DNA from: an uncultured archaeon
GTDB lineage: Archaea; Asgardarchaeota; Thorarchaeia; Thorarchaeales; Thorarchaeaceae
NCBI GenBank assembly: GCA_964354495.1
Contig: CAYHAA010000012.1
Location: forward strand, 63,209 to 95,208
Direction of reading: 5' to 3'
Length of the DNA stretch: 32,000 nucleotides
The position numbers were made by a program, and so were the translations under genes. The first letter of the stretch is position 1; each line of letters starts with the position of its first letter. Below are positions 25,915 through 32,000 of the stretch, in pieces. The notes under the pieces were generated by a model, which searched no databases, was not told the DNA's origin, and saw only the letters and a program-made list of their open reading frames with translations.

Positions 25915-26928
25915 TTATTCATCAATGAAGTCGATGACATACAGGCTGTTTCCCACTGCTTGTACTATCTCGCACCTCTTGTTCCCGTCGATGTCTCCGA
26001 TGGCTAGAATTGACTCTGTTGCCTTTTTTGATGTTCTTAGTGTTGTCTCTAAATTGATTCTCTTTTCGACAAGTGTCAGTAGTGCAATGTTGGAGTTGGC
26101 ATGACTGATGACCATCTGACCTCGCATTGGCTCAAGATCCCAGAAGCGACCCATCTTGATCCCAGTGATAGTGTTAGGCGCTTTGATAGAGTCAATCCTC
26201 TCCATTGTCCCCTTCACAAGGCCAAACAGAGTAAGTGTCTTCGCGTCAGATACGGTCACTACCTCATCGTTCCCATCATCTGTGATGTCTCCGGAGGACA
26301 GGAGTTCAACGTCTCCTCCAACACTAGTTCTCGCTCTCTCGTGCAGTCTATCATCAGCATACTGATAGATATAGAAATACCCCGAATCGTCACCAAAGAT
26401 GAAACGATTATAGGGCAACATCTTTGTTCGCAGAGGCTGTATCGAGAATACCGGCCGCTCAAGCACCTTGTGTGCTAGCTTGTCAAGAGCAACATCAAAC
26501 CAACCATAGCATCGCATACTGCCATCGCTGGTAGCCACAACAACATCCACGCTCTCATTACCGAGAATGTTGAGAACTGACACAGATGTGGGAAGGCTGC
26601 CAAGAGGAGTTGAAGCCTTCACGCTGAGCTTATCGTCCAAATACACAACGACCCTGAGAGTGTTATCAAGCCCGCCCATGACAAAGTCAGCGACGCCATC
26701 ACCGGTGACGTCACCGATAGCAATGGCTGCCAGAGGTGGCATGTCCGCTAGACTGCATTGCTCAGCAAGCGGGTTCTTCTCAGATCTGTCGAACTCGTAG
26801 ACCCTTACATCCCCATTGAGCGTGGTCACAACAACGTTGCTCTTCCCTACTCCCTGCAGGTCCACCAGTTCGACGGAAGTGATTACCTCCTTGAAGGTAA
26901 CCTTTGAAAAGACGTCGAACGTAGTCAT
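25915..26928 (-). CDS. FG-GAP/VCBS-repeat beta-propeller with no signal peptide
   Basis: IAIGDVTGDGVADFV, SSGDITDDGNDEVV, AIGDIDGNKRCEIV and VDLQGVGKSNVV repeats; SD GAGG. Confidence 0.82.
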   Translation of the reverse strand: MTTFDVFSKVTFKEVITSVELVDLQGVGKSNVVVTTLNGDVRVYEFDRSEKNPLAEQCSLADMPPLAAIAIGDVTGDGVADFVMGGLDNTLRVVVYLDDKLSVKASTPLGSLPTSVSVLNILGNESVDVVVATSDGSMRCYGWFDVALDKLAHKVLERPVFSIQPLRTKMLPYNRFIFGDDSGYFYIYQYADDRLHERARTSVGGDVELLSSGDITDDGNDEVVTVSDAKTLTLFGLVKGTMERIDSIKAPNTITGIKMGRFWDLEPMRGQMVISHANSNIALLTLVEKRINLETTLRTSKKATESILAIGDIDGNKRCEIVQAVGNSLYVIDFIDE

Positions 26929-27037: not shown

Positions 27038-27058
27038 CGAAGTATGAGACCTGATACT

Positions 27059-27604
27059 ATGGATGGAGACGCGGAACCACCAAAACTGAACGAGGATGAA
27101 TGGTTCTCCACGTCCGAGACCATCGCCAAGGAGCTTCAATCCTTTGCTGATGAGTTTGGCTCCTTTACACCCCATCATTTTGCTCAAGTCAACTTTCATC
27201 ATCTTCGTAGGGAGGGTCTCACTAGGGCAACTCGTGATGAGTTGTGCGAGATCTCCATTCACATCAAGACCTGCCCCAAGTGTGAGCTCCTCTACGTTGC
27301 CAAGAATTGCCTACTTTGGTCCCGGCTGTACAAGATGGCGACCTGGGACATCGTAGAGAGAACGCCACCATGCATACGTTTGGCCTATGCGAAGAAGACA
27401 ATCAAGACAGTCACGAACTACCTCGCAGCAGTAGGTCTTCTTGCGCCGCCATTTTACAAATTGCGGAGCGCTCCTTCCTGCAACTCTATGCGTCGCTGGG
27501 CGTATTGTCATCCTAATGAATACTGCAGAGCCATGAAGACCGATAACACCTTCGAGTATATTGCAGCTCGCGAACGTGTGAAGCTCTCGAGAACACATTT
27601 CTGA
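27059..27604 (+). CDS. HxxxCxxC zinc motif plus primase-large-subunit CTD-like 4-Cys domain
   Basis: HIKTCPKC, followed by PPCI...TNYLAAVG...PSCNSM...YC...EYC. Start is 27059 or 27044. Confidence 0.65.
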   Translation: MDGDAEPPKLNEDEWFSTSETIAKELQSFADEFGSFTPHHFAQVNFHHLRREGLTRATRDELCEISIHIKTCPKCELLYVAKNCLLWSRLYKMATWDIVERTPPCIRLAYAKKTIKTVTNYLAAVGLLAPPFYKLRSAPSCNSMRRWAYCHPNEYCRAMKTDNTFEYIAARERVKLSRTHF

Positions 27605-27633: not shown

Positions 27634-27814
27634 CGGACATGTCTTCCCAGTCTTGGGTCGGACTGCATTGCAAAGTGATACAGATGTGAATGCCATCCAA
27701 CTCATTCGCCTGACTGGTCTCAGGGAGAATGAGATTAACACAGCAAAGAAGGAGGGTGGTAAGAAATGGAGTAGAATAGACCAGTCTATACGGGAACATG
27801 AGCGTCTCATAGGA

Positions 27815-29176
27815 ATGGGCGAGAAACATACACGACAAAAAGCCATCCAAGACCCTGTTCATGGAGCCATCATTCTAGATCCTTGGGAACTTGATGTAGT
27901 ATCCTCTTGGGAAATGCTTAGGCTCCGCTATGTGATGCAGCTGGGACCAGCTCATATTGTCTATCCCGGAGCCACTCATACAAGATTTCAGCACTGCCTT
28001 GGCACGAATTTCCTTGCTCAAAAGTCCATTCGAGTTGTGAACTACTGTGAGGACCTTGAGGGCGGTTGTTTCAAACCGTTTTCGGACTTGCTTGATGACT
28101 ATCAAAAGAGGCTCTTCAGGGCTGCGGCTCTGCTCCATGATGTCGGTCATCCTCCGACCTCTCATACAATCGAGTATGCTCTGAAATCTTGGGCCGGCCT
28201 TGATCATGTTGACCTTGGAGAATTCTTGATCCTTAACAGTGGTCTCACTGACACACTCAGACAAAACGGCATTGACCCGAGAGACATCATGAATATCATC
28301 AGACGGAAGACAAACGACCCTATACTGAACCTGCTAGCAGACTTTCTTGATCATCCCCTAGACATTGACAAGACCGACTATCTGATACGTGATGCGCACT
28401 TCAGTGGCGTGCAGCTAGGTGTCTTTCCTGCCGAACGAGTTCTACTCACCAACCGAGTGGTCATGGATAAAGACGGAAGATACGTTCGAGCCTTCATGTT
28501 GAAGGCAATCTCTTCTCTCGAGGCTCTCATTCTTAGTCGCAATTGGATGTTCTCTGATCTCTATCTCCACCATGCTGTGAAACTTGCAGAGGCACTGACT
28601 TCAAAGGCGACGTACTTCAGAATGGAAGAGGAGGGTCTCTCAAAGAACGAGTGTATTGGTCTATTCACCAGAATGAATGATGGAGACCTGTATCGCTGGC
28701 TCTCTGAATCTGATATCGCCTTTGTGAGAGAATATGCAGCGCGGATTCGCTATAGGCGGCTGTTCAAAGTTGCTCTCTCTAAGTCTCTCGCGTCATTTGA
28801 GCCAAGTGCAAGAAAGGAGCTTCTCTCGATGCTTACCCGAATCCAAACCCTGATTGAAGCAGAGAATGAGCTCTCTGAGGAACTTGGCAGTGTAGTGATT
28901 GATGTTGTAGTGCCTGACTTGGGGGCGAAGAGCCTCAGCAAGATACCGCTACTTGTGGGAGGCGAACATGGGTTTGATATTGTGAGCCTTGATGAAACAG
29001 GTGAGGGTTACCCTCTTCTGCAGACCCTCAGACAACAGACACGTACAATCCCCTCAGTACGTGTATACTCGGACCCCCGCATTGCAGGCATCGTACAGAA
29101 GAAGTTTGAGAGAATGTTTCCTATGGCCGACACGCCCCTCCATAGGGATGATGAACATGACTTCCTTGAGTACTAG
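27815..29176 (+). CDS. HD-domain phosphohydrolase, SAMHD1/EF1143-like dNTP triphosphohydrolase family
   Basis: IQDPVHG, RLRYVMQLG, VYPGATHTRFQH, LLHDVGHPPTSH, DIDKTDYLIRD and LYLHH motifs. Confidence 0.92.
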   Translation: MGEKHTRQKAIQDPVHGAIILDPWELDVVSSWEMLRLRYVMQLGPAHIVYPGATHTRFQHCLGTNFLAQKSIRVVNYCEDLEGGCFKPFSDLLDDYQKRLFRAAALLHDVGHPPTSHTIEYALKSWAGLDHVDLGEFLILNSGLTDTLRQNGIDPRDIMNIIRRKTNDPILNLLADFLDHPLDIDKTDYLIRDAHFSGVQLGVFPAERVLLTNRVVMDKDGRYVRAFMLKAISSLEALILSRNWMFSDLYLHHAVKLAEALTSKATYFRMEEEGLSKNECIGLFTRMNDGDLYRWLSESDIAFVREYAARIRYRRLFKVALSKSLASFEPSARKELLSMLTRIQTLIEAENELSEELGSVVIDVVVPDLGAKSLSKIPLLVGGEHGFDIVSLDETGEGYPLLQTLRQQTRTIPSVRVYSDPRIAGIVQKKFERMFPMADTPLHRDDEHDFLEY

Positions 29177-29844
29177 AGCAGATATCTGATGTTGTCTAGG
29201 ACTCTATCAAAACCATACTCCATCTGGATAATTCCATAGATGGCCTCTACCAAAGTTCCCTTGTCGTGCTCTATTTCTTCCCTGCTAGGAACCTCTGAAT
29301 CAAGATGAATACGATGTTCATAGAGCCCCCATCGATCACAGAGCGCTGCCATGTTTTCATTACTGACAATCTCGGACTTCTCCTTAGTCAGATGACCCAC
29401 ATCACTCGGTTCAGGTCGCCACAGCTGATATAGAACTCCCATTGCTATTGCAGCATCCCCAAGTAGCGCCATGACCATAGCTATCTCACCTAATGCTATC
29501 AGCTCCGCGAGGCCATGGTTGCCCAGGGGGTTTTCATTCTCACTCTTGTAGTGTGCTTCAAGCTCCAGAAACAAGTTCTTTGTGCTTGGCTGAAACATTG
29601 CCACTTGAAGAAGCTCTAGATTTGTGATTCTTAGACCTAGTATTGTTTCCAACTTGGGAGCAAGGTTGTGATTGACATATTCTATGCCTTCCTTCATCTG
29701 TTCAATCTGCTCTTTCCACCGACGAGTCTTGGCCAAGAGTCGCAATTTATTCGAGGGGGTTCTATTCCTAGTTTGTTCTATTGCCTCTAGCAGGATGTCA
29801 AGCTTGACTACTATGTCAACGGGTTTCCAGCCGAGTCTTATCAT
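29173..29844 (-). CDS. Stand-alone RNase III domain protein (Mini-III-like, no dsRBD)
   Basis: LQVAMFQPS, ALLGDAAI, LTKEKSEIVSNENMA and GTLVEAIYG motifs. Confidence 0.78.
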   Translation of the reverse strand: MIRLGWKPVDIVVKLDILLEAIEQTRNRTPSNKLRLLAKTRRWKEQIEQMKEGIEYVNHNLAPKLETILGLRITNLELLQVAMFQPSTKNLFLELEAHYKSENENPLGNHGLAELIALGEIAMVMALLGDAAIAMGVLYQLWRPEPSDVGHLTKEKSEIVSNENMAALCDRWGLYEHRIHLDSEVPSREEIEHDKGTLVEAIYGIIQMEYGFDRVLDNIRYLL

Positions 29845-30912: not shown

Positions 30913-32000
30913 ATGGCTGAAGACGAGTTTCTTGGCGCCAAGCCGATTGTCATTGACAACGGCACTGGATTGAGCAAGAACGGATACGCCGGCGAAGATC
31001 AGCCACGAAGTGTCTGGCCGACTCTGATTGGTTATCCAAGATATGAGTCAATCATGACCGATGTTGATCACTACACACGTGACTACTACATTGGCGAAGA
31101 GGCTATCAACCTGCGTGGTGTCCTGCGTCTGGTTTACCCGATCTCTCATGGAATTGTAGAAGACTGGGATGCCATCGAGAAGATATGGAGCTACACGTTC
31201 TATAACGACTTGAAGGTAGACCCAAGTGAGAACCCGGTGCTCCTCACTGAGGCACCATTCAACCCCAGAGAGAACAGAGAGCGTATGGCATCCGTCATGT
31301 TTGACAACTTCGGAGTGCCCGCAGTGTACGTTGCCACACAGGCAGTACTCTCACTGTACGCATCTGGCCGAACAACTGGTCTGGTCATCGACTCTGGTGA
31401 CGGTGTGACCCACATAGTACCTATCTATGAGGGCTTCTCAATCAATCACGCCATCCGCAGAATCGACCTGGCTGGAAGAGACATCACTGAGTACCTGCGT
31501 AGGCTGCTCAGACAGAGGGGATACTCCTTTGTCAGCGGCGCAGAGAAAGAGATTGTCAGAGACATCAAAGAGAAGCTATGTTATGTAGCTCTTGATCCCG
31601 AGAGGGAACGAATAGTCGCTGACAAGGCCGGTGTCGACAAGCCCTACATGCTCCCTGACGGTGAGGTCATCACTGTGGGTGCTGAGAGGTTCCAGGCTCC
31701 TGAGTTGTTCTTCAACCCAAGTGCTATTGGTCTTGACACAATACCCCTCGACGAGCACATTGTCGAGTCAATCAAGGCATGTGATGTCGACTTGCGACGT
31801 GACCTGTACGCCAACATTGTACTATCAGGCGGTTCAACCATGTTCCCAGGACTCAAGGAGAGACTCCACAAGGAGATCACCGAACTAGTCCCAGAGAACA
31901 TCGAGGTCCGAATCATTGCTCCACCCGAGAGACAGTACTCTGTCTGGATTGGTGGTAGTATTCTCGGCTCACTGAAGACATTCCAGAAGATGTGGGTGTC
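30913..32000 (+). CDS. Asgard actin (Lokiactin-type), truncated by the window end after 362 codons
   Basis: Manual translation: [121 protein letters not shown]. Absent from the ORF track because there is no stop in the window. Confidence 0.98.

Follow-up and report, generated by a model that had tools for sequence, protein, structure and literature searches.

A gene of an uncultured member of the Thorarchaeaceae encodes a two-module protein, in which an acidic N-terminal module carrying a set of four cysteines (Cys4) is followed by a reduced form of the C-terminal domain of the primase large subunit PriL (PriL-CTD). The C-terminal ~90 residues are a shrunken PriL-CTD paralogue that keeps the four [4Fe-4S] cysteines and their supporting helices. 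The gene lies in the window, the whole 32,000-nucleotide stretch of contig CAYHAA010000012.1 that was analysed, and the genome encodes a complete PriL elsewhere. Tentatively, we favor a role for the product as a clade-specific, single-copy, PriL-docking Fe-S accessory protein of the replicative primase. All of the support is computational; only the homology in sequence and fold is more than prediction or inference. The gene is delimited as follows:

27044-27604, + strand: gene for the 186-aa protein (P0001), a mini primase-like Fe-S protein, from the ORF list and its translation
27602-27604, + strand: stop codon of the gene

A two-module protein

Although the open reading frame begins at 27044, the true start is probably the ATG at 27059, giving a protein of 181 aa, because the residue equivalent to M6 begins most homologues. 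Residues are nevertheless numbered here from 27044. Searching 5.8 billion proteins returned 64 homologues with E-values from 1e-40 to 1e-118; these are ~181 aa long, almost all of them between 173 and 194 aa. An exhaustive HMMER search adds further relatives down to ~25% identity. The named homologues are all from Thorarchaeota or Promethearchaeota.

Family databases are silent on the whole protein. Pfam gives no match for 20 family members at E-values up to 10, PHROGs gives none, and NCBIfam yields no informative match, its single hit being insignificant (E 0.013). Neither the single sequence nor the profile matches any PDB sequence, PriX included. The motifs that had been read from the translation are all in place: H73xxxC77xxC80 upstream, then PPC110I, TNYLAAVG (124-131), PSC146NSM, YC155, EYC161 and FEY (170-172). 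All eight cysteine codons of the ORF were verified on the DNA. The same eight cysteines (C68, C77, C80, C89, C110, C146, C155 and C161) are kept across 72 homologues, each in 69 to 72 of them; the rest are gaps, apart from two substitutions at C89.

A shrunken PriL C-terminal domain

The second module, referred to below as the mini-CTD, contains the last four of these cysteines:

27320-27601, + strand: C-terminal mini PriL-CTD-like domain, residues 93-186, basic (hhalign and fold searches)
27371-27526, + strand: the four predicted [4Fe-4S] ligands (alignment with the PriL cluster cysteines)
27371-27373, 27479-27481, 27506-27508 and 27524-27526, + strand: ligand codons of C110, C146, C155 and C161, respectively

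Homology to PriL is clearest in profile comparison. Against an archaeal-type Asgard PriL profile, hhalign gives a probability of 93.5%, an E-value of 2.3e-7 and a score of 49.1, with 33% identity over 75 columns and the four cysteines in register, C110, C146, C155 and C161 pairing one-to-one with the PriL cluster cysteines. Sixty column-shuffled controls average 13.5 and peak at 22.1, against 49.1 for the real profile. The clear signal needed this broader archaeal-type profile: the Thorarchaeota's own, more diverged PriL taken alone gives a marginal result (E 0.02), in the upper range of 30 shuffles. In the other direction, an HMM of the family's CTD scores 15-23 bits on PriL in four other Asgard families, each time at the terminal Cys motif, and the whole-protein profile matched PriL itself in 2 of 301 genomes (E 2-4e-4 per genome). 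At the Cys motif these matched PriLs read PPSCNTLRTYNLCEKNEFC and the mini-CTD counterpart reads APSCNSMRRWAYCHPNEYC, with the same C-x8-C-x5-C spacing. This spacing is also that of PriL in several Asgard families, and the PPCI at Cys1 is likewise shared with PriL. The mini-CTD resembles PriLs with this spacing more closely than it does the PriL of the Thorarchaeota themselves.

Structural searches lead to the same place. Modelled alone, the mini-CTD has a pLDDT of 87 and a pTM of 0.74. In an exhaustive alignment with 48,161 PDB chains, human p58C comes first (5dqo_A, Z 3.8, rmsd 5.1 A over 87/94 residues) and yeast PriL-CTD third (Z 3.0), with just 40 chains at Z 2 or above. Among AlphaFold DB clusters, rank 1 is the protein's own family and ranks 2-12 contain nothing but PriL, primase and Primase-X entries (probability 0.57-0.96, TM ~0.5). 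The top three in the ESM Atlas comprise PriL, a cluster of stand-alone PriL-CTDs and a further cluster bearing the name of the primase small subunit (TM 0.53-0.57). Foldseek against the PDB returns nothing at E up to 0.001 for either the full model or the CTD model. Each fold score is modest, and such weight as the modelled fold carries comes from the agreement of three libraries. The structural comparison that the original prediction had proposed thus places PriL first among known proteins in the PDB, AlphaFold DB and ESM Atlas, and its view of the C-terminal half as a miniature PriL-CTD-type Fe-S domain with all four cysteines is borne out by profile comparison and fold searches alike.

The predicted cluster ligands are spaced C-x35-C-x8-C-x5-C. 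Of the 72 homologues, 72, 72, 72 and 71 carry them, the remaining sequence having a gap at C161, so that wherever the alignment covers them they are invariant; variable cysteines had been named beforehand as a result that would speak against the domain. The conservation and the pairing with PriL predict that C110, C146, C155 and C161 hold a [4Fe-4S] cluster.

What the domain has lost is equally well defined. Aligned to PriL, it lacks the HxxR loop of ~9-10 residues and a segment of ~33-36 residues that includes RYQVEHIxG, in agreement with the earlier reading that the HxxR motif and the template-binding segment are missing. These are the regions with which p58C contacts the initiating nucleotide, the 5'-triphosphate of the primer and the template, and we take RYQVEHIxG to be the counterpart of the human Y345/Y347 region. 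Their loss would leave several biochemical roles possible for the mini-CTD. The domain is strongly basic, with a median net charge of +11 and a pI of 10 over 69 homologues.

The relation to the PriL/p58 CTD (the C-terminal part of PF04104, DNA_primase_lrg) is therefore one of homology, with the four cysteines in the same order and the core helices shared. The two differ in size, the mini-CTD having ~90 residues and the domain in PriL ~125-190, and in that the mini-CTD has neither the HxxR loop, nor the RYQVEHIxG segment, nor a PriL N-terminal domain (PriL-NTD). The genome also encodes a complete PriL. The PF04104 model misses the mini-CTD protein and, run over the genome, returns the canonical priL only.

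The N-terminal module

27083-27319, + strand: N-terminal module (N-module), residues 14-92, acidic, helical, of no known family
27089-27214, + strand: conserved stretch W20...EFGSFTPxxFAxVNFHLLR, residues 16-57, the predicted PriL-NTD contact surface
27245-27310, + strand: N-module Cys4 set C68-x8-C77-x2-C80-x8-C89 (codons TGC 27245, TGC 27272, TGT 27281 and TGC 27308)

The N-module has a median net charge of -3 and a pI of 5.5 (69 homologues). W20, F41, P43, F46 and H52 do not vary between close homologues. Model confidence is low at residues 83-89, where the pLDDT falls below 50. Structural matches to winged helices are weak (Z 3.5-4.9), and the fold is not taken as identified; in a language-model atlas search the best score, 0.83, was uninformative.

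Cysteines occur at C68, C77, C80 and C89 in 70, 71, 71 and 69 of 72 homologues, and the conserved set is probably a metal site, for zinc or for a second Fe-S cluster. H73, which lies inside the set, is found in just 30 of the 72, its position elsewhere being taken by Y, K, S, N, F, Q or G. The original prediction had read H73xxxC77xxC80 as a ZAS/zf-HC2 anti-sigma motif. No Pfam zinc-finger or ZAS family matches, and the anti-sigma reading is rejected: what the family conserves upstream is a Cys4 metal motif (C-x8-C-x2-C-x8-C) and no HxxxCxxC, and the likeness to ZAS/zf-HC2 is a coincidence of this one sequence. To our knowledge, archaea have no sigma/anti-sigma system.

The N-module also exists alone. 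In a further Asgard family it makes up proteins of 105-110 aa that end just past the Cys motif (hhalign probability 90.4%). Because the module exists as an autonomous protein, the two Cys4 sets are most likely two separate metal sites.

We considered whether the N-module is homologous to PriL-NTD (PF26466, or the N-terminal part of PF04104) and rejected this on sequence: aligned alone to PriL-NTD it gives an hhalign E-value of 0.92, and the full protein scores 49.4 against PriL, compared with 49.1 for the CTD alone. The alignment does extend collinearly into PriL ~120-225 in greedy hhalign and, weakly, in Foldseek. Since the N-module adds no score, the earlier statement that the protein has no PriL N-terminal domain stands.

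The genome's own primase and the distribution of the family

A separate full-length priL, which the original prediction had suggested looking for, is present in the genome. This canonical PriL has 383 aa and is encoded on contig 25; the canonical PriS has 464 aa and is encoded on contig 6, where the preceding gene is PCNA-like by eye. The genome's PriL has kept both nucleotide/template segments, with H263, R266, Y300, Q301 and H304 retained in the alignment of Thorarchaeota PriLs. PriL is present in 61/61 sampled Asgard genomes.

The mini-PriL-CTD family is far more restricted. It occurs in 73 of 76 sampled Thorarchaeaceae genomes, nearly always in single copy, and in 81 of 85 in a second sample. 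It is also found in three other Asgard families (5/5, 1/1 and 6/6 genomes). In the remaining sampled families it was not found, with counts such as 0/68 (0/135 in the second sample), 0/28, 0/21 and 0/19. Such a distribution points to a clade-specific core gene, as opposed to a defence or mobile gene, and it fits a core, housekeeping role because the gene is near-universal and single-copy within the carrier families.

Predicted docking on PriL

Full-length PriL and the mini-PriL-CTD protein were co-folded as two chains in one job, with three seeds and unpaired alignments. The ipSAE is 0.67 (runs at 0.67, 0.71 and 0.04), and the best of three controls reaches 0.20. The ipSAE mark is attained by 58 of 80 solved complexes and by 2 of 110 mismatched pairs, a calibration that is rough only, custom alignments having been used. 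The runs have at least 82% of contacts in common, and the partner pLDDT is at least 69. Because the alignments were unpaired, the co-fold holds no co-evolution signal. Recall of a PriX structure is unlikely, because no complex of the family has been solved and the interface involves no PriL-CTD-like part.

In the predicted interface, residues 59-61, 97-108, 145, 162-166 and 182-191 of PriL-NTD face residues 21, 34, 37-39, 44-45, 48-52 and 55-57 of the mini-PriL-CTD protein. The latter fall in the best-conserved stretch of the N-module. The model supports, rather than shows, docking of N-module residues 21-57 on PriL-NTD, and it lends in silico support to the earlier suggestion of a primase modulator. 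If the docking is real, the protein may be an undescribed third primase subunit. Comparing the PriL interface residues between lineages with and without the mini-PriL-CTD protein revealed no separating pattern. By rough mapping from a published account in which the PriS-contact region of PriL is named (PMC12770985), this region corresponds to ~residues 136-156 of the genome's PriL and adjoins the predicted docking site.

The N-module on the helicase of an integrated element

The conserved part of the N-module recurs at the head of an SF3 helicase with D5_N, DUF5906 and Pox_D5 domains, encoded in one Thorarchaeaceae genome. The first ~48 residues of this helicase match family residues 16-57, with an E-value of 1.1e-6 per genome for a profile that excludes the helicase, and with an hhalign probability of 96.4% (E 1.1e-9). 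The 42-residue stretch borne by the helicase is the same one that contacts PriL in the co-fold. Around the helicase gene lie ORFans, a DUF488 gene, a C5 methylase gene and a tyrosine integrase gene overlapping a tRNA-Ser gene: the locus is an integrated element. Pfam finds no primase domain in the helicase ORF. A word-indexed search (query P0196, residues 1-75) found no second helicase with the N-module, and a module profile run over 400 Asgard genomes returned that helicase once only.

The recurrence fits a portable replisome-docking module. A host-primase docking module copied onto such a helicase would make sense, as we infer from this single case. If true, a docking module on the helicase of a mobile element would be a concrete case of replisome hijacking in Asgard archaea.

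Comparison with known primase systems

What the Fe-S cluster of primase large subunits does is an old question, and the cluster is almost universally conserved. In the Sulfolobus and Nanoarchaeum primases it is dispensable for primer synthesis (PMC5700102, PMC10250227). Against this background the family is a natural dissection of PriL-CTD, in which the cluster-holding core is kept and the nucleotide/template parts are discarded, under strong purifying selection beside a complete PriL. Should the protein bind primase, it would offer a small, tractable system for the cluster core's own role, as well as a third subunit for an Asgard primase. If it does not, the homologues would still form an undescribed Fe-S family whose N-terminal Cys4 module is new. 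A full-text literature search, partly judged by titles and abstracts, returned no published description of the family, and a 2025 survey of Asgard primases covers PriS and PriL only (PMC12770985).

The nearest parallel is PriX, the third primase subunit of the Sulfolobales, which sits near the PriS-PriL interface (PMC5700102). PriX is also a PriL-CTD relative, which retained its nucleotide-binding site and lost the Fe-S cluster, and that site is equivalent to the nucleotide/template residues of PriL-CTD (PMC5700102). Both proteins are small stand-alone PriL-CTD relatives in genomes with a full PriL, and the docking site predicted here, by rough mapping, also lies near the PriS-PriL interface. 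They differ by opposite losses: the mini-CTD keeps the cluster cysteines, and the segments equivalent to the PriX-type nucleotide site for initiation are deleted. The original prediction had set the protein apart from PriX by the latter's lack of a cluster, and this distinction holds. The N-terminal parts also differ, as do the taxa, Thermoproteota for PriX and Asgard for the mini-PriL-CTD protein. By analogy, the latter may be seen as the mirror case of PriX.

Reduced PriL-CTDs are also known from DPANN archaea. NEQ395 of Nanoarchaeum equitans is a monomeric PriS-PriL fusion (PMC10250227), and 180-aa stand-alone Nanobdellota proteins are found in the ESM Atlas. Like the mini-CTD, these have a compact [4Fe-4S] CTD with no PriL-NTD. 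However, the reduced DPANN PriL-CTD seems to be the regulatory domain of the primase itself, whereas the mini-CTD has a canonical PriL alongside. NEQ395 has 74 residues between Cys1 and Cys2 (C289 and C364), compared with 35 in the mini-CTD.

Models of function

In the primase-accessory reading that we tentatively prefer, the conserved face of the N-module (21-57) would sit on the cell's own PriL-NTD, beside the rough-mapped PriS contact. The N-module would thereby tie to PriS-PriL a second Fe-S domain, strongly basic and unable to replace PriL-CTD in dinucleotide formation. The added domain might instead hold the primer-template or single-stranded DNA, or it might modulate, possibly through its redox state, primer length, hand-off or primase access. 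Several points count against this reading: one co-fold seed at 0.04, unpaired alignments in that single two-chain co-fold, PriL interface residues that fail to set carrier lineages apart, the lack of conserved replication neighbours, the low Z of 3.8 to p58C (rmsd 5.1 A) and the missing PF04104 match.

A more elaborate form of the model is doubtful as a whole. It proposes a three-subunit Thorarchaeia-type primase, in which the acidic module would clamp PriL-NTD and add a [4Fe-4S] domain free of a nucleotide site, and in which elements would have copied the 42-residue module onto a D5-like SF3 helicase to recruit the host primase.

The main rival, unlikely though it seems to us, is that this Fe-S protein stands alone and binds nucleic acids with no part in primase; it might, for instance, act in DNA repair or RNA metabolism, or be a regulator that senses redox state or iron. 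Its PriL-CTD ancestry would then be historical only, and the basic CTD would bind DNA or RNA alone. The strong positive charge of the CTD and the disappearance of the primer-initiation segments suit such a protein, and the weak winged-helix-like matches of the N-module are reminiscent of regulators that combine a wHTH with a cluster. However, DNA-binding winged helices are not usually acidic, as the N-module is. In one lineage a DEAD/MZB helicase gene and an AP_endonuc_2 gene flank the mini-PriL-CTD gene, but this repair-type neighbourhood is a single case. The absence of conserved adjoining replication genes also agrees with independence from primase, while the co-fold with PriL, which passed its controls, and the recurrence of the N-module stretch on a replicative SF3 helicase both speak against this rival.

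An improbable alternative holds that the protein is a stripped-down large subunit that binds PriS directly, replacing or competing with PriL, and that initiation would be altered or primase inhibited as a result. The collinear alignments invite this idea, since Foldseek lays residues 25-185 of the full model along PriL ~140-350 (probability 0.51-0.80) and greedy hhalign runs into PriL 121-225; the contact site on PriL, moreover, adjoins the PriS-contact region as roughly mapped from the literature (PMC12770985). The failure of the N-module to raise the profile score or to match PriL-NTD by itself, set out above, argues against it.

Gene neighborhood

27653-29176, + strand: HD + HD_assoc_2 gene, dNTP-triphosphohydrolase-like by Pfam match, the downstream neighbour

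In the Thorarchaeaceae, a divergent FG-GAP propeller gene, the mini-PriL-CTD gene and the HD/HD_assoc_2 hydrolase gene follow one another in this order. The adjacency of the HD gene is of little informative value, because the entire 12-kb region, from a phosphoribosyltransferase gene to an actin gene and including CGI-121 and Sua5, is syntenic in the Thorarchaeaceae. In the three other carrier families the HD gene is elsewhere and the neighbours are different. The HD/HD_assoc_2 gene is thus probably outside the functional unit of the mini-PriL-CTD gene. Replication genes do not occur as conserved neighbours, either in the Thorarchaeaceae or in the three other carrier families.

A nucleotide-signalling or antiviral module formed with the HD hydrolase, an RNase III-like gene and a putative regulator, all adjacent in the window and kept in order among Thorarchaeaceae down to 48% identity, is very improbable, since that synteny takes in the housekeeping genes of the whole 12 kb, the association is broken in the three other families, and near-universal single-copy presence is unlike a defence island.

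The actin gene in the window is matched by Pfam Actin with an E-value of 6.6e-125.

The N-module beyond the family

The acidic N-module also occurs independently of the miniature PriL-CTD-like Fe-S domain. In one further Asgard family, two loci encode proteins of 105-110 aa that consist of the N-module alone and terminate just past its C-x9-C-x2-C-x3-C-x3-C motif, and the mini PriL-CTD is absent from this family:
L023:497-814, - strand, N-module-only protein
L024:458-790, + strand, N-module-only protein

Part of the module, residues 16-57, which form the predicted PriL-NTD contact stretch, is found at the N-terminus of an SF3 helicase, the only such case among 400 Asgard genomes:
L025:1258-3000 (G055:C27), 612-aa open frame, SF3 helicase with D5_N/DUF5906/Pox_D5 domains

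The helicase sits inside an integrated element (context L059:1-16001) that also carries ORFans, a DUF488 gene, a C5 DNA methylase and, overlapping tRNA-Ser, a tyrosine integrase.

Genomic settings

The priL and priS genes of the window's genome are unlinked, lying on contigs 25 and 6 respectively, and this priS comes after a gene that, judged by eye, looks PCNA-like. In one other Asgard family, priL (L021:418-1458) is directly followed by priS (L021:1519-2499) on the same strand.

One lineage has the family gene in a repair-flavoured setting, a single occurrence, flanked on either side by:
L061:1794-4400, - strand, DEAD/Helicase_C/MZB helicase
L061:5030-5878, + strand, AP_endonuc_2 TIM-barrel protein

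Another family includes a genome whose copy of the studied gene, at G006:C1:799291-799740, carries three in-frame stops (TGA, TAG and TAA), and is possibly a pseudogene or an assembly error.

Within the window, the surrounding genes include:
25915-26928, - strand, FG-GAP-type beta-propeller, 337 aa (weak matches to BBS7, ITFG2 and RSE1/DDB1 propellers)
27653-29176, + strand, HD + HD_assoc_2 protein, dNTP-triphosphohydrolase-like (weak NCBIfam dGTPase matches)
29173-29844, - strand, RNase III-domain protein (no dsRBD detected by Pfam)
30913-31998, + strand, Asgard actin (Pfam Actin, E 6.6e-125), running past the window end

The HD/HD_assoc_2 and RNase III-domain genes are convergent, with their ends overlapping by 4 nt. 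The propeller gene and the gene studied are divergently oriented and remain neighbors throughout Thorarchaeaceae.
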